64,000 bases of DNA from a virus: IMG/VR virus record IMGVR_UViG_3300045988_174937; one strand, written 5' to 3'. Shown piece after piece: positions 17,993 to 24,478 of this stretch. Below the pieces are notes generated by a model. That model had not been told where the DNA came from. It saw only the letters and a list, made by a program, of their open reading frames with translations, and searched no databases. How positions within the stretch are numbered: position 1 is the stretch's first letter; the number at the start of each line of letters is the position of its first letter. A program made the position numbers and the translations under genes.

Positions 17993-19210
17993 ATGAAGCA
18001 AGAATCAATTTCCAAGGCCGAAACGGGCATTAGCCGTTTTGAGTTTGACTATCGGCGGCGTGTGGTATTTACCGACCCGCGCGGTTCGTTCGCCGAGGTG
18101 TATCCGTATATCAACCGCACGATGATGACGACGCTCCCGCTTCAGGATTCTCGTGCTGGTAAGGTACGCGAACTGCTCGACGTCAAGACCATCATCAACA
18201 ACCCGTATCGCCGCTGTGTAGGCGGTTACGCCCGCAACATCAACGTCTTCTTCCTGCTGGCTGAAGCTATGTGGATAGTTACGGGCCGCAAGGACGTCGA
18301 GTTCCTGAAAATCTTCAACGGTAAGATGGTCGATTTTTCCGATAATGGCGTTACGTTCCACGCCCCTTACGGCTGGCGTTTGCGTCACTGGGGTATTTCG
18401 TCCGAGGGCGAGTCGATGGACCCGGGCCTGGACCAGGTAAAGGAAGCCATTCGCCTGCTGAGCGCTGACCCGGAAACGCGTCAGGTGGTGATGTCGATTT
18501 GGAATCCTAAGTTTGACCTCGGCGTGAAATCGAAAGACTTGCCGTGTAACGACATGGTGATGCTGAAAATCCGCGACGGGAAACTCGTTACCACGGTCCA
18601 GAATCGTTCGAACGACCTCCACTGGGGCTTACCCACGAACATCTTCCAGTTCTCGTTCCTGACGGAGGTAATGTCCCTCTGCTTGGGGGTAGAGTTAGGC
18701 GTTCAGACTCACAATTCGCAGTCGCTCCATATCTACGAATGGAATAATATCGCCGAGCAGATGAGCGAACTTTTCGCGTCCAATAATACGCGCCGCAGTT
18801 TGTACTGCGAGGGAGCGATGTCGTACATGATGGACTTTAAGTTCGAATCGGAGGTTCCGGTAAACCGCTTGTGTGAAATAACGGCCTTTATGGAAGAGAT
18901 GATAAATCGCTTGGCAATGCGGCACGCAAAAGGCGATATCTTGGAAGATGAGGCCGGGTTCGAGAACTACGTGTTTGAGAAATCGACCTATTTCTGGGTA
19001 GTTTATCAGCTGTTGAAGGTGTACGTCTTCTACAAGCGCAATATTGGCGCCTACGCGGATGACCGCGATACGTTGCTGAAGTCGTGCTATGCGCTGGTGG
19101 ACCGTATTGCAGGGGCCGTATCCGTTGAAGAAAAGTGGGACTACCTGATGCTGGCTCGCAATTTCTTCGCGGCAAGGTTATCTAACGCAGAAACCTGTAA
19201 ACTCCTGTAA
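17993..19210 (+). CDS. thymidylate synthase-family enzyme (ThyA / pyrimidine hydroxymethylase superfamily) with a long C-terminal extension
   Basis: DQVKEAIRLLSADPETRQVVMSIWNP...DLPCNDMVMLKIRDGKLVTTVQNRSNDLHWGLPTNIFQFSFL...SLHIY aligns with E. coli ThyA [25 protein letters not shown]...[41 protein letters not shown]...DTHLY. 405 aa against about 264 for ThyA. Confidence 0.7.
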   Translation: MKQESISKAETGISRFEFDYRRRVVFTDPRGSFAEVYPYINRTMMTTLPLQDSRAGKVRELLDVKTIINNPYRRCVGGYARNINVFFLLAEAMWIVTGRKDVEFLKIFNGKMVDFSDNGVTFHAPYGWRLRHWGISSEGESMDPGLDQVKEAIRLLSADPETRQVVMSIWNPKFDLGVKSKDLPCNDMVMLKIRDGKLVTTVQNRSNDLHWGLPTNIFQFSFLTEVMSLCLGVELGVQTHNSQSLHIYEWNNIAEQMSELFASNNTRRSLYCEGAMSYMMDFKFESEVPVNRLCEITAFMEEMINRLAMRHAKGDILEDEAGFENYVFEKSTYFWVVYQLLKVYVFYKRNIGAYADDRDTLLKSCYALVDRIAGAVSVEEKWDYLMLARNFFAARLSNAETCKLL

Positions 19211-19211
19211 T

Positions 19212-20906
19212 ATGACTGACTCGCTACGTCGGTGGGCGGAAGATAACTATCTGGCTATCGAAGAAAAGCGCGACGACGAATTGAACATAATCGCTATTGA
19301 GGGCGTGGGGGACTTCTTGTACCTCCACCCCGACGATAGCGGAAAGATAATCGACGAACGGTTCTCGTTCGCGGTAACGGCTGACGAATTCGACGCGCTG
19401 TACGATGGCGTGGTGAAATACATCCTCTTCGAGTTTGGCGGCAAGTTCTACTACTCGAATATCAAAAAGGACCACCTGCGGCTGGATAAAACCGTGGTTT
19501 TCCGTCCCGAATTCCGCGACTTCAAGTATCTCGGCACCAGTACGGCTGAAGAATTGGTTCCGTTCGTTCACCTGGGGGTTCATAGCGAATACGAGTTCTT
19601 GAACGGTTCGTCAAACTGCGAAGAATGGGCTGCTAAGGCCAAATTCAACCGTATGACGGCTCTTGGTATTTGTGACCGTAATACGCTGGCTGGCACGCTC
19701 GCCTTTCAGACCGCTTGCTTGGGCAAGGGGTTGAAACCTATCATCGGCGAAACTGTTACCGTGGCTTGTAACTACGACCCGGCGGCTGACGTTCAGGAAA
19801 CCTTTTCGCTGAAACTCTACGCCATGAATACCCAGGGATGGCGAAACCTGCTGCTGGTTAATAAGGCTATCAACGTCGATTATCAAGGATTCATACCCGC
19901 GGAAGAACTCTACAAGTTAGGCCGCGGCCTGGTATGTGTAATACCGCCTGATAGCGAATTAAACTATTTCAAGGGGGACGTCGAGCGTTGCAAGCGGTTA
20001 TTGACGGCCTATCACGCCGCATTCGACCGTGTGTACTACCAGATTGATACGGTGGAGTACACATCCGAAACCCTATTCCGCGACCACTTGGAAAGTATTG
20101 ATACCTACGTATGCCGCTGTCGTAAGATTAAACTCTACCGACAGACGCCGCCGCTCGTTATAAACGACTCGTATTACCTCGACGCCGAAGAGGCTCCGCT
20201 GAAGTCGCTTCTGAACAAGGTAGCAGGCGTGGTCAATGCCGAAAGTGCGACCCAGTATTTCAAAAACTCAAAAGAGACGATTCTGGCGTATGAAGAGTGG
20301 ATGGATGTAGCCGCGCCCCTTTACGAAAAGATAATCGTTGGTATGACCAATTCCAGCACGTTGGCGGAGAGTATTGACTTTAAGATACCCACCGGAATAC
20401 GTCACCTGCCGAAATACGAGTTTGTTAAAACTACGGTTGAAGACGCCTTTTTCGAGAAACTGGAAGCGGGCGTACAGGAGCGGCTGGTAGGTAAGGTTGA
20501 TAACCTCGATCAGTATCTGGCGGAGTTGGAAAAGGAATGTGCCATCATCGTACCGAACGGGCTGTGTGACTACTTTATGATACTTTGGGACATCATGAAC
20601 TGGTGTCGCGAGCAGGGTATCATGACTGGGTCAGGTCGTGGCTCGGTTTGCGGTTCGTTGATTGCGTATTGCCTGTACATCACGGACGTGGACCCGCTGA
20701 AATACAATCTCATGTTTGAGCGATTTTTGAACTCTAATCGTGTTGAACCAGAAACAATATTTACGGTCGAGTTGGAAAATGGAGATAAATATAAAATCAA
20801 AAAGGGTGAAGAGATAAAAACAGTTGACGGAAAGTTTGTTAAGATTGAATCTGAAGCGGATTTGGTTGATTTGGATGTTGATGTAACTACTCTGAGACTT
20901 TCCTAA
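19212..20906 (+). CDS. dnaE: DNA polymerase III alpha, N-terminal part (PHP domain and first half of palm)
   Basis: PHP motif FVHLGVHSEYEFLNG and palm motif GSGRGSVCGSLIAYCLYITDVDPLKYNLMFERFLNSNRV. Homology then ends and a stop follows 54 codons later. Confidence 0.85.
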   Translation: MTDSLRRWAEDNYLAIEEKRDDELNIIAIEGVGDFLYLHPDDSGKIIDERFSFAVTADEFDALYDGVVKYILFEFGGKFYYSNIKKDHLRLDKTVVFRPEFRDFKYLGTSTAEELVPFVHLGVHSEYEFLNGSSNCEEWAAKAKFNRMTALGICDRNTLAGTLAFQTACLGKGLKPIIGETVTVACNYDPAADVQETFSLKLYAMNTQGWRNLLLVNKAINVDYQGFIPAEELYKLGRGLVCVIPPDSELNYFKGDVERCKRLLTAYHAAFDRVYYQIDTVEYTSETLFRDHLESIDTYVCRCRKIKLYRQTPPLVINDSYYLDAEEAPLKSLLNKVAGVVNAESATQYFKNSKETILAYEEWMDVAAPLYEKIIVGMTNSSTLAESIDFKIPTGIRHLPKYEFVKTTVEDAFFEKLEAGVQERLVGKVDNLDQYLAELEKECAIIVPNGLCDYFMILWDIMNWCREQGIMTGSGRGSVCGSLIAYCLYITDVDPLKYNLMFERFLNSNRVEPETIFTVELENGDKYKIKKGEEIKTVDGKFVKIESEADLVDLDVDVTTLRLS

Positions 20907-21012
20907 ATGAGACAATGTTATTATGATGGCGATACTCCGCCGTTTGGGTGGAATAGAGGAAGAGTGAAACATGAAAATAAAAAAGGTTGAGAAAATATCA
21001 GTTGCCCGTCAG
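20742..21012 (+). other. A/T-rich insertion splitting dnaE (candidate ORF-less intron, or a genuine gene split)
   Basis: It lies between FERFLNSNR and DSMPDIDCDF, which are contiguous in canonical Pol III alpha. The two exon-like parts are in different frames. These boundaries follow the 5'-exon-U / intron-terminal-G convention but are not proven. Confidence 0.35.
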
Positions 21013-23814
21013 GACAGCATGCCTGATATCGACTGCGACTTCCCGGTGGCGTTCCGTGATACGGTGAAAGAGTACATGGCCCGTCGTTACGGCGTGGACC
21101 ACGTTTGTTCCGTGGGTACGTACACGCGCATGAAACTGAAGACCTGTTTGAAGGACTTTGGTAAGGTTATGGGCGTTCCGTTTGCGGTGATGAATAAACT
21201 CACCAAGGACATTGACGACCAAATAGAATACACGTGGGGCGACCTGTTCAACTACGCCGCAACGTCGCGGGAATTATTCCGTTTCGTCCAGGACCACCCG
21301 GAGTTGGTACACATGACGAAATACGCCCTTACACAGTGTAAGACGGGTTCGGTTCATCCGTCGGCCGTTATCATCGTACCCAAGGAAGACGAAGATGGTC
21401 ACCCCATCGACCTTTACGGGTGGATGCCTATGAAACGCATGGGTGGCGTGCTGGTCTCCGAGTGGGAGGGTAAGTATATCGACAAGTCAGGGTTCTTGAA
21501 AGAGGATATTTTGGGCCTCAACCAACTGGATAAGTTTTCGTCTATTCTGAAACTTATCGCCAAGAACCGCAAGGAGCAAATCGACGTCAACACCATTCCG
21601 TTCGGCGACGAGGAGGTATTCCGGTATTTCCAGCGCGGGTGGTGTGAGGATGTGTTCCAATTTGGTGCTATGGGGTTGATGAATTACTGCCGCGAGGCCA
21701 AGCCGCATAGCCTGGACGACCTTATCGCTATGACGGCGTTGTTCCGGCCCGGTCCTATGGATGTAAAGGCGCACGAAACGTTCGTTGAAATTAAGAACGG
21801 CGCCAGGAAGCCTAAGTTCGACCCCGGTATGGAGGAAATCACGCGCGACACCTATTCGCTTTATACCTACCAGGAGCAGATAATGAAAGCGATGGTTGTC
21901 GGAGGATTAACCCCCGTTGAGTCAGATGAATGTCGTACTTACATCAAGAAGAAAAACCACGAAGCGCTGGCCCAGTTTAAGGGAAAGTTCGTAAATGGAT
22001 ATTCGGCGTTGATAGAATCACGAGGCGTTGAATCTAAACGCGCCGCGGCCCAGGCTTCTGAGGTTTGGGACAAGATGCTGGCATTTGCTTCGTATGGCTT
22101 CAATAAGTGCTTGGCAGGTTCGGAACGTATTCGTCGCGTAGGTATTACGCGCGGTTCGTATGCTCCCACTATCGAAGAGATGTACGAAATAAAGAATCGC
22201 ACGTCTGATTTATGGCTATCTCACGAATCGTTAAGCGATAAGTATATTCGTTCAGGGTACGGAATGTGCTGGTCGTTAAACGACGAAGGCAGGTTGGTTC
22301 GTAATAAAATCGTTGACATCCGTTTTGAAGGTGTGCGTCCAGTTTACGAAATCACTGTACGTTCCGGCGAAAAGATACGCTGTACGTCTAATCACCGCTT
22401 CCCGACACTGGCGGGTGAAATGTCTATAGATAGCGGTTTGGCAGTTGGTGCTCGATTGTATATCTGGGCTGGATACGAAGAAACGAATAAGGATTATTCG
22501 TTCCAACGCGGTAGGTCTCAAAACTATCCTACGAAGGGTCAGTGCGGATTCCAGCGTCAAGAATATCATCCCACCGTTGACTTTGAAAATTTCAAACGCC
22601 AACACGCCGGATGCCCGTGTGATAAGTGCGGCAAAGTGGGAAAACGCATGGAGGCTCATCATATGGATGGGAATCGGGCGAATAATGACGTTAGCAACCT
22701 GATGTGGCTCTGTAATTCGTGTCATAAGAAAATCCACTTTGAAACGCTACCGCGTCACCGAATGGGTGAAAAGGGATTGTTAACACGATTGGAAGAAATC
22801 GTCAATATTCAGTGCGTAGGTGAAGAAAAAGTCTATGACGTGGAGGTGAGCGGCAACGTGTCACACACGTTTTTGACTGACGGTGGTGTGGTAACGTGTA
22901 ATTCTCACGCCGTGGCCTATACCATGATGTCGTACTGGTCGCAGTGGTTTAAGGTCAACTACCCACTGGAGTTCTGGACGACGTCGCTTCAGTATACCTC
23001 GAAGGAATCCGATATCCCGTATCGCTTGGTGGAGATGAAGAAAACCGGGGCTGAAATTGAGGTCCGTCCGCCGGATATCAATTTCTCAGGTGAAACCTTT
23101 ACGTGCGACCCCAAGACGAACCGTATCTTCTTTTCGCTGGGTAAGGTCAAGGGAGTAGGCGAGCGGGCGTTAACGCTATTGAAAGCCATGAAAGACGAGC
23201 ACGGCGAAGTGTTCTCGTTTGAGGACTTCATAACCTCCGCCCCGAAAGGCATAAACCGTACCGTGGTGCTGCGCCTTATTATGGCTGGAGCGTTCGACCT
23301 GGTAGAAGATATCCGGAACCCGCGTCAGCGTCTGGACATCGTCAAGCAGTATCTCGAACGTCGCGGCGAACCGCTTTCCGACGAATTCACTTCGCCTGAT
23401 GCTCACACTAACGCCTGGTGGGTCTTCAAACAGCGTGAATTAACCGGGTACGGCGAAGTAGACTACGAACGTATGATGAACGAATACGGACTCGGAAAAC
23501 GAATGGTCCGGCTGTACGTTACCGCCGCCGAGTTTGAGCGCAAACACGAAGGTGACGAGGTTTGCATCGTTGGCCGTGTGAATAACGTATTCGAACGCCA
23601 AACCAAGGGTGGCGATTCTTACGGAGTACTGCAAGTGGAGGTCAACGACCTCATCATCCAGATTACGTTGTGGCCCGACTTTTGGCTTCATCAGCCGGAA
23701 AACGAAGCTACGCTGTTGAACCGTATCGTGGCCGTTTCAGGGCGTGTGAATTATTTCGCTGGAAAGAAGACCGTACAGTCTTCACAATCTACAAGGTTAG
23801 AGATATTACAATAG
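20971..23814 (+). CDS. dnaE: DNA polymerase III alpha, C-terminal part (catalytic aspartates, fingers, OB region), containing an intein
   Basis: After a 15-aa leader it resumes with SMPDIDCDF. Further motifs: LFRPGPMD, and YGFNK / SHAVAYTMMSYWSQWFKVNYPLEFW split by the intein. Confidence 0.85.
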   Translation: MKIKKVEKISVARQDSMPDIDCDFPVAFRDTVKEYMARRYGVDHVCSVGTYTRMKLKTCLKDFGKVMGVPFAVMNKLTKDIDDQIEYTWGDLFNYAATSRELFRFVQDHPELVHMTKYALTQCKTGSVHPSAVIIVPKEDEDGHPIDLYGWMPMKRMGGVLVSEWEGKYIDKSGFLKEDILGLNQLDKFSSILKLIAKNRKEQIDVNTIPFGDEEVFRYFQRGWCEDVFQFGAMGLMNYCREAKPHSLDDLIAMTALFRPGPMDVKAHETFVEIKNGARKPKFDPGMEEITRDTYSLYTYQEQIMKAMVVGGLTPVESDECRTYIKKKNHEALAQFKGKFVNGYSALIESRGVESKRAAAQASEVWDKMLAFASYGFNKCLAGSERIRRVGITRGSYAPTIEEMYEIKNRTSDLWLSHESLSDKYIRSGYGMCWSLNDEGRLVRNKIVDIRFEGVRPVYEITVRSGEKIRCTSNHRFPTLAGEMSIDSGLAVGARLYIWAGYEETNKDYSFQRGRSQNYPTKGQCGFQRQEYHPTVDFENFKRQHAGCPCDKCGKVGKRMEAHHMDGNRANNDVSNLMWLCNSCHKKIHFETLPRHRMGEKGLLTRLEEIVNIQCVGEEKVYDVEVSGNVSHTFLTDGGVVTCNSHAVAYTMMSYWSQWFKVNYPLEFWTTSLQYTSKESDIPYRLVEMKKTGAEIEVRPPDINFSGETFTCDPKTNRIFFSLGKVKGVGERALTLLKAMKDEHGEVFSFEDFITSAPKGINRTVVLRLIMAGAFDLVEDIRNPRQRLDIVKQYLERRGEPLSDEFTSPDAHTNAWWVFKQRELTGYGEVDYERMMNEYGLGKRMVRLYVTAAEFERKHEGDEVCIVGRVNNVFERQTKGGDSYGVLQVEVNDLIIQITLWPDFWLHQPENEATLLNRIVAVSGRVNYFAGKKTVQSSQSTRLEILQ
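22108..22902 (+). mobile_element. intein with HNH homing-endonuclease domain inside dnaE
   Basis: In-frame 265 codons. Cys1 (CLAGSERI), block B IRCTSNHRF, HNH HHMDGNRANNDVSNLMWLCNSCHKKIH, block F/G VYDVEV..HTFL..GGVVTCN, then +1 Ser. The exteins rejoin to the canonical YGFNK-SHA. Confidence 0.8.
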
Positions 23815-23830
23815 TAGAACAAAATCGGTT

Positions 23831-24478
23831 ATGCAAAAGGATGATTTAATCAAACTCTTCAGTCGTGACCACCTGGCGCGGTTGGATAACATCAAGCAGT
23901 GGTTGGAGTACGACCGCCACCAGCAGGAAAGCGTTTCACAACATTCATACAAGGTATCAGTCTTCACGATGTGCCTGCTGGACTATCTCTGGCCCGGAGG
24001 GGACGATAATAATACGGTGGCCGCGTTTAAGTATCAGACGCTGAAGATGGCGCTGATGCACGACTTCGACGAGGCTGTTCTGCGTCGTGATATCACCCAC
24101 GAACTGAAATACAACGCCTACAACGGGTCGGAACTGCGTAACGTTTTGGACGAGTTTGTCGCTCACCAGGTAGCGGACGAATTTGGTGACGATTCAGTAG
24201 TCTCCAAAACGCTTTCTAAGGATGCGCCGTATTACGACGTTGCTCACGCGATTGTAAAGGTTGCTGATTGGATGGCGTTGCTGTATTTCCTGAAGCGCGA
24301 ACTGGCTATGGGGAACCGCTCGTGGCCCTTGAATTTGCTGCCGTACTGCAAGGAAAGCTACCGTAAGGCGGTTTCAACGTTACAAAGTACGTGTGTATCG
24401 GCGGATATTTGTGAGCAAGAGCGCCTGATGTACGTATGGGTAGGAGCCATTAATGACTTACAAAACGATATTATTTAA
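23831..24478 (+). CDS. HD-domain 5'-deoxynucleotidase (YfbR-like)
   Basis: ESVSQHSYKVSVFT, MALMHDFDEAVLRRDITHELKY and VKVADWMALLYFLKRELAMGN align with E. coli YfbR [35 protein letters not shown] and [21 protein letters not shown]. Confidence 0.7.
   Translation: MQKDDLIKLFSRDHLARLDNIKQWLEYDRHQQESVSQHSYKVSVFTMCLLDYLWPGGDDNNTVAAFKYQTLKMALMHDFDEAVLRRDITHELKYNAYNGSELRNVLDEFVAHQVADEFGDDSVVSKTLSKDAPYYDVAHAIVKVADWMALLYFLKRELAMGNRSWPLNLLPYCKESYRKAVSTLQSTCVSADICEQERLMYVWVGAINDLQNDII

Follow-up and report, generated by a model that had tools for sequence, protein, structure and literature searches.

The fingers of PolIII-alpha are a recognized hot spot of intein insertion, where the insertion points a–d and g are crowded within 75 residues (Novikova et al. 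2016, PMC4760082). The survey that documented them covered cellular genomes, mostly those of cyanobacteria (PMC4760082); point a is the site of the split DnaE intein of cyanobacteria (Ssp/Npu). The present work concerns an insert situated within the same stretch of a phage DnaE and encoded in a DNA of 64,000 nucleotides from the IMG/VR virus record IMGVR_UViG_3300045988_174937 (this whole DNA is referred to below as the window). The insert occupies positions 22108-22902 on the + strand, comprises 265 codons (795 nucleotides) in frame and interrupts the finger motif YGFNK^SHA (here and below, the caret marks the insertion point). Very probably, it represents a functional, bifunctional class-1 intein with an active HNH homing endonuclease. 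Its anatomy, fold, conserved catalytic residues, precise presence/absence polymorphism and recent lateral spread are established by the comparisons described below; its splicing, DNA cleavage and cut site are predicted.

The cyanobacterial split DnaE intein resembles the present one in its host protein, finger motif and Hint fold (Foldseek match of the intein model to Ssp DnaE, 1zd7: 3.6e-8); it also belongs to class 1 and likewise starts with Cys1 and ends in Asn. Unlike the insert, the cyanobacterial intein is split, lacks an endonuclease, relies on a +1 Cys and is inherited vertically. The preliminary description of this DNA placed the two sites a few residues apart; according to PDB entry 1zde (KFAEY^CFN, with the intein at the caret), the present site lies four residues downstream.

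In class-1 inteins of mycobacteriophages, the penultimate His is replaced by Gly, Lys or Ser, and at least one of these inteins splices; the upstream His of block F is thought to compensate for the loss (Kelley et al. 2016, PMC5050341). Like the present intein, they reside in phages and in DNA-metabolism genes and have the penultimate His replaced, but their host genes and phyla are different, and Cys is not among the quoted replacements. The mycobacteriophage ThyX inteins are 26% identical to the present intein over 99% of its length. Genes fractured by free-standing homing endonucleases constitute another known category (Dassa et al. 2009, PMC2677866), relevant to a second feature of the same polymerase gene (see below).

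HNH inteins, DnaE-finger inteins, phage inteins devoid of the penultimate His and polymerase genes fractured by endonucleases are all already established. Against this background, the element described here is an ordinary, well-supported member of a large metagenomic family. It is mildly notable for a very clean homing signature, two apparently competing alleles and three selfish-element sites in one essential gene.

Anatomy and fold of the insert

The interrupted gene and its insert are composed of the following parts (coordinates of the window):

19212..20906, + strand: N-terminal piece of DnaE, 564 residues, comprising the PHP domain and the beginning of the polymerase core (Pfam PHP 1e-16, DNA_pol3_alpha 3.6e-31)
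20971..22107, + strand: N-extein in the C-terminal piece of DnaE (core, finger), ending ...ASYGFNK (Pfam DNA_pol3_alpha, DNA_pol3_finger 1.4e-38)
22108..22902, + strand: whole intein, 265 codons, from Cys1 to Asn265
22108..22467, + strand: Hint N-lobe with block A (Cys1, CLAGSE), a helical insert (residues 22-49) and block B; TIGR01445 covers residues 1-100
22384-22395, + strand: block B, T93-S-N-H96, with T93 kept in 130 and H96 in all 131 of the 131 aligned inteins of the family
22612..22737, + strand: HNH endonuclease core CPCDKC...E-HH...N...N...CNSCHKKIH, a beta-beta-alpha metal finger with two CxxC pairs
22783..22902, + strand: Hint C-lobe with block F VYDVEV...SHTFL (D244 and H253, kept in 121 and 124 of the same 131 inteins) and block G VVTCN (penultimate Cys264, Asn265)
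22903..23814, + strand: C-extein (remaining fingers, HhH, OB region; Pfam HHH_6 7.9e-17)

The open reading frame (ORF) hosting the insert (20971..23814, + strand, 947 residues) encodes the C-terminal piece of DnaE, i.e., the rest of the core, the finger and the HhH domains. The N-terminal piece belongs to the host gene context outside the intein and aligns with residues 1-514 of the unsplit allele P0025. Across the insert, the protein reads ...AFASYGFNK^CLAGSERIRRV...GGVVTCN^SHAVAYTMMSYW. The 265-codon in-frame insert starting with Cys, as proposed in the preliminary description, turned out to be exact in the translation of 22048-22962. All the motifs listed there were recovered as well: block B RCTSNHRF, the stretch VYDVEV..SHTFL..VVTCN, the +1 Ser of the C-extein (codon TCT, 22903-22905) and the HNH nuclease region CPCDKC...HHMDGNRANN...CNSCHKKIH. 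The reading frame runs uninterrupted through both junctions: the left one is ...TTC AAT AAG^TGC TTG GCA... (...TTCAATAAG^TGCTTGGCA...), and the right one is ...ACG TGT AAT^TCT CAC GCC (...ACGTGTAAT^TCTCACGCC...).

The Hint similarity anticipated in the preliminary description was borne out by the search with profile hidden Markov models. The insert scored above the threshold with Pfam Intein_splicing (PF14890; 36.5 bits vs. a gathering score of 35.8) and NCBIfam TIGR01445 intein_Nterm (31 bits vs. a cut-off of 24.5). The same is true for the nuclease models HNH (PF01844; intein residues 171-211, 23.2 bits vs. a gathering score of 21.4) and HNH_3 (PF13392; residues 175-203, 25.1 bits vs. 24.8). 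A phmmer search of PDB linked intein residues 48-119 with the NpuDnaB intein (3e-9) and the gp41-1 intein (3.6e-8).

The fold was inspected in an AlphaFold (AF2) model built from an alignment of 24 family sequences (A1), with a predicted local distance difference test score (pLDDT) of 89.7; it replaced a single-sequence AlphaFold model with pLDDT 31, which was useless. All 50 matches listed by Foldseek for this model in PDB are inteins or Hint-fold domains, including NpuDnaB (target TM-score 0.83), Mtu RecA (0.80), Ssp DnaB, Ssp DnaE and gp41-1. In the model, the strands 181-185 and 198-202 together with the helix 203-213 form a strand–strand–helix unit (residues 181-213), and the HNH unit (HH...N...N...CxxCH) sits between the two lobes of the Hint domain, the standard place for the endonuclease of an intein. 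The residues C171, C174, H184, H185, N197, C202, C205 and H206 are invariant in the alignment A1, as are Cys1 and Asn265. Overall, the insert displays the hallmarks of a class-1 intein: the Hint fold, Cys1, block B TxxH, a terminal Asn followed by a +1 Ser and an in-frame insertion with matching intein-less alleles. The penultimate His, which is usual and not obligatory in this class, is represented by Cys264. Hence, the domain models, the Hint-fold model and the exact intein-less junctions (see below) all agree with the HNH intein envisaged in the preliminary description.

Since phage polymerase genes host introns, too, a group I or group II intron was considered along with an assembly artefact, with nothing else in their favour. 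Both are so improbable as to be practically negligible: the frame passes through both junctions and encodes the Hint and HNH domains, the Rfam scan of 19000-24000 returned no match at E<=0.01, and the same sequence has been recovered from many independent samples and by different assemblers. No further HNH, GIY-YIG or LAGLIDADG motif was found in the window.

According to the proposed mechanism, the primary translation product of DnaE would contain the 265-residue insert within the finger motif, and the Hint domain would then excise itself. Excision would start from an N-S acyl shift at Cys1 assisted by Thr93 and His96 of block B, followed by the transfer of the acyl group to the +1 Ser. Next, Asn265 would cyclise, presumably with the help of Asp244 and His253 of block F in place of the absent penultimate His. 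Finally, an O-N shift would yield the active polymerase with the sequence ...YGFNK-SHAVAY....

Intein-less alleles and lateral spread

The protein search with the 947-residue ORF returned thousands of DnaE relatives, and the commonest size among the closest of them (93-99% identity) is 682 residues, i.e., 947 - 265. Other relatives have 1187 residues (unsplit, without the intein) or 1452 residues (unsplit, with the intein). The intein-less relative P0003, with an extein 99% identical to that of the window, reads ...ASYGFNKSHAVAYTMM...; its junction, shared with P0025, is ...ASYGFNKSHAVAYTMMSYW... and contains YGFNKSHAVAY. In its DNA, the locus L002 matches the window at 97.5-98.4% identity, with precisely the 795 bases of the insert missing. 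The gap at the site amounts to 0 nucleotides in L002 and 18 other loci and to exactly 795 nucleotides in every intein-bearing locus. The intein-less DNA at the junction is TTCAATAAG^TCGCACGCC, or, in a longer stretch, ...GCTTCGTATGGCTTCAATAAGTCGCACGCCGTGGCCTAT.... The exact absence of the 795 bases implies that the insert is not a product of chance, and the intein-less alleles provide the strongest computational evidence that the mature DnaE is meant to lack it.

The mature polymerase should be annotated as the predicted spliced product, and the 947-residue ORF should be labelled as intein-containing. For the detection of this product in proteomes, the preliminary description proposed the junction peptide ...YGFNKSHAVAY...; it would escape detection in tryptic digests, since the enzyme cleaves at the Lys of the junction. 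The fully tryptic peptide diagnostic of the spliced protein is SHAVAYTMMSYWSQWFK, with a peptide generated by another protease as the alternative; the precursor-specific peptide is VYDVEVSGNVSHTFLTDGGVVTCNSHAVAYTMMSYWSQWFK.

The record of mobility is given by the comparison of the intein with its flanks. The intein DNA of the window is identical at 792 of 795 positions to that of the loci L003 and L004, where it resides in an unsplit DnaE, whereas the identity of their flanks to those of the window is only 80.8% in the N-extein and 78.6% in the C-extein. A fully identical 795-nucleotide copy, designated allele A, is carried by five independent contigs (from IMG/VR and Logan) on two extein backgrounds. 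Overall, the intein DNA is 99.6-100% identical across phages with flanking DnaE DNA identical by ca. 80%. The co-conversion tracts, in which single-nucleotide polymorphisms of the background are swapped for donor bases, extend over 16-37 nucleotides to the left and 3-54 nucleotides to the right of the site; L003 and L004 have different right tracts. Every intein-bearing allele encodes the +1 Ser by TCT, most of the intein-less ones by TCG, and the GC content at third codon positions is 0.47 in the intein vs. 0.64-0.65 in the exteins. The near-identical inteins on ca. 80% identical backgrounds, taken together with co-conversion tracts of 3-54 bases, point to recent homing between related phages.

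The intein is distributed sporadically among close relatives, and its divergence is discordant with that of the host gene, as is typical of a mobile element. It was detected in 5 of the 24 IMG/VR gene copies covering the site. At the same time, the cluster of intein-bearing proteins has 389 members, encoded in near-complete contigs of ~97-102 kb (up to 102.7 kb) from many samples, so the interruption of the essential gene is compatible with a viable and abundant phage.

The same site can be occupied by another intein, allele B, also of 265 codons, encoded in the loci L027 and L030 (IMG/VR_UViG_3300029572_000001 and 3300045988_170732). Its identity to the allele of the window is 64% in nucleotides and 66% in amino acids. 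Between the alleles A and B, the proportion of synonymous differences (pS) is ~0.8, i.e., saturated, and that of nonsynonymous differences (pN) is ~0.25 in every segment (in the HNH segment, pN ~0.26 vs. pS ~0.80). Since pN is far below pS in all segments, both the splicing and the nuclease functions are under purifying selection. Judging from the sequences, two diverged inteins are likely to compete for one homing site in one phage group.

In the proposed homing cycle, the HNH domain would, in co-infected cells, nick or cut the intein-less DnaE gene at TTCAATAAG^TCGCACGCC or close to it. The intein-bearing genome would then serve as the repair template, so that the 795-bp element would be copied together with a few tens of flanking bases.

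Several points weigh against a fully functional bifunctional intein. The canonical penultimate His is absent, and TIGR01443 intein_Cterm scores below its cut-off on the insert (11.8 vs. 15.6 bits), which fits this absence. Furthermore, the allele-A copy of the window carries three private changes, two synonymous ones and P101L (window position 22409, CCG to CTG). The latter falls in FPTPxGE directly after block B, where Pro is the family consensus and is retained by every other allele-A copy seen; the function of the window copy could, therefore, be mildly compromised. Finally, the intein could, in principle, have spread by ordinary recombination between co-infecting phages with no activity of the HNH domain.

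The last two points bear on the possibility of a splicing-competent intein in which HNH no longer drives mobility and which depends on passive recombination or vertical inheritance. This possibility draws on the three private substitutions, on the presence of the intein in 5 of 24 copies with no sweep to fixation and on the predicted status of cleavage. Nevertheless, it is unlikely, since the catalytic and zinc-binding residues of HNH are intact and invariant in the family and the HNH segment shows the above-mentioned excess of pS over pN. Moreover, identical copies on ca. 80% identical backgrounds with very short tracts centred on the site form the pattern of break-initiated homing, not that of random recombination. 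With active homing as the preferred explanation, the phage group offers a natural, very recent snapshot of the process: diverged genomes share identical copies of the intein, two alleles are rivals for one site, and GIY-YIG cassettes occupy two other sites of the same essential gene. As such, it can be a useful population-genetic system for studying the life cycles of selfish elements in gut phages.

The intein family and its penultimate residue

The exhaustive HMMER search of 1.84 billion representative proteins revealed 2655 relatives of the intein at E<=1e-3, including 130 at E<=1e-30. The best representative is 47% identical to the intein, and the identity among the 150 listed is 30-50%. 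Nearly all of these 150 best relatives, upon parsing, proved to be DnaE proteins interrupted at FN(K/R/A)^SH(A/S). A few relatives are found at nearby sites, either Y^[CS]FN (P0188, P0223, P0260), which is the site of the cyanobacterial intein, or FN^[CS]xH. The inteins of the 130 parsed family sequences, extracted with a pattern that demanded Cys1 and a terminal Asn followed by Ser, are mostly 257-286 residues long, and the downstream context is SH in 129 of them. The present intein shares with its family the host protein, the insertion point, the layout of C1, TxNH, HNH, YD, H and terminal N as well as the penultimate Cys or Ser; it differs in that its allele is less than 50% identical to the best-scoring representatives. 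Assemblies and metagenome-assembled genomes harboring the family members are mostly labelled as gut Bacteroidales (e.g., Lepagella muris, Palleniella muris, Prevotella sp. MGM2), with a few other taxa. The literature search retrieved no publication naming or testing this family of DnaE FN(K/R/A)^SH(A/S) HNH inteins.

The preliminary description drew attention to the penultimate Cys in place of the usual His. The residue is indeed there (Cys264), but it is no oddity: the penultimate position is taken by Cys in 59, by Ser in 56 and by His in only 5 of the 130 relatives, so a residue other than His is the norm of the family. Together with the low TIGR01443 score, the lack of His might be taken as a sign of a non-splicing domain insertion, of a degenerate intein kept in the mature polymerase or of a DnaE pseudogene. 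All of these are very unlikely indeed. The insert breaks the most conserved finger motif, YGFNKSH; all the other splicing residues are conserved in the 131 relatives; no copy has a broken frame; the insert is present in hundreds of near-complete genomes; and phage inteins lacking the penultimate His do splice (Kelley et al. 2016, PMC5050341).

Another suggestion is that Cys or Ser in place of the penultimate His marks a mechanistically distinct subclass of DnaE inteins. In such a subclass, a reversible disulfide between Cys264 and Cys1 would make the maturation of the polymerase and, with it, replication redox-dependent in an anaerobic host. This suggestion is decidedly doubtful: Cys and Ser are equally common at the penultimate position, and the search for covariation of Cys264 with another Cys as a disulfide partner showed no positive association at positions 54, 92 or 146. 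Apart from the redox conjecture, compact inteins with a +1 Ser and a penultimate Cys or Ser might offer new splicing properties for technology.

Among the phages of INPHARED, the only DnaE with a related full-length HNH intein is gp72 of the Gordonia phage Wojtek (OL455890.1; locus L001, 1718-5758). Its intein is 27.5% identical to the present one over 98% of the query and interrupts the same YxFNxxH motif. It differs in being inserted two residues upstream (YSF^NIAH), in its +1 Asn and in the retained penultimate His (HHN). The sequence of Wojtek gp72 is ...ATYSF^CVTGDT...GFIHHN^NIAHCVSY, and its junction is confirmed by the intein-less LuckyLeo and Apeppi (YSFNIAHCVSY). Since the +1 Asn cannot serve as the usual splice nucleophile, the Wojtek intein may only cleave, may splice in a non-canonical way or may be defective.

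The break at 20.7 kb and the host phage

In the preliminary description, the polymerase gene was considered to carry two independent invasions, the intein and a break at 20.7 kb. The break is real and independent of the intein; it is not a second intein and represents a GIY-YIG cassette with its endonuclease deleted. Its remnant comprises the following parts:

20742..21015, + strand: remnant of the GIY-YIG cassette at the DnaE split, consisting of a tail, a stop codon, a 64-nucleotide spacer and a head
20742-20903, + strand: acidic tail of 54 residues on the N-terminal piece (EPETIF...TTLRLS)
20971-21015, + strand: basic head of 15 residues on the C-terminal piece (MKIKKVEKISVARQD)

The unsplit DnaE alleles read FERFLNETRVSGERAKSADSLPDIDCDF at this place; in the window, the tail, the stop codon with the spacer and the head stand in place of the loop SGERAKSAD. 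In many relatives, including the loci L008, L012 and L025, the two DnaE pieces are separated by a GIY-YIG ORF of 249-250 residues, which starts with M(Y/Q)GIIYKTTNLVNGKIYIGQH and has NUMOD-like repeats. Relative to L008, the window lacks 699 nucleotides between 20916 and 20917, which implies that the GIY-YIG ORF has been removed from it. The tail and the endonuclease of the split site occur in two diverged variants. All four combinations of split or unsplit DnaE with and without the intein are encountered, and, hence, the break and the intein are independent of each other. The tail and the head may serve as docking peptides of complementary charge.

A split intein was also considered for the break and rejected: the tail has neither Cys nor His, the head ends in Asp, and no Hint hit was obtained in the N-terminal piece at E<=1.

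The known counterparts of this arrangement are Aeh1 nrdA/MobE and gp43 of Aeromonas phage 25 (PMC2677866), where an essential replication gene is likewise split into two ORFs by a GIY-YIG cassette. In contrast to them, the endonuclease ORF of the window is deleted, and the flanking tails are devoid of split-intein residues.

A third split site has been observed in the loci L026 (4055-4933) and L027, where a paralogous GIY-YIG ORF of 292 residues divides DnaE into ORFs of 863 and 332 residues. This site is equivalent to about 22010-22040 of the window, i.e., ~30 codons upstream of the intein site, and L027 carries both the third-site cassette and the intein allele B. The 900-nucleotide insert of L026 was also checked as a possible intron and dismissed, as it gave no Rfam match and is made up of the GIY-YIG ORF.

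The window codes for a terminase, a portal protein, a baseplate protein, a DnaB-type helicase, an SbcC-like protein and a thymidylate synthase, and its source is an uncultured, gut-type tailed phage, probably of Bacteroidota. According to the annotation of the syntenic L002, DnaE is preceded by a homologue of thymidylate synthase (PF00303; 17993-19210) and followed by a YfbR-like HD-domain protein (PF12917, PF13023; 23831-24478), both uninterrupted. The related contigs are 97-102 kb long. The nearest cultured relatives are the Bacteroides thetaiotaomicron phages DAC16-23 (37% identity in TerL) and phages of Chryseobacterium, Cellulophaga and Tenacibaculum (34% in DnaE); a megablast search with the whole gene found no match among the INPHARED phages. 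The contig IMGVR_UViG_3300029572_000001 (199 kb) contains two copies of DnaE ~100 kb apart, the intein-less L021 and L027 with its GIY-YIG cassette and intein B, which suggests that this contig is an assembly joining two related phage genomes.

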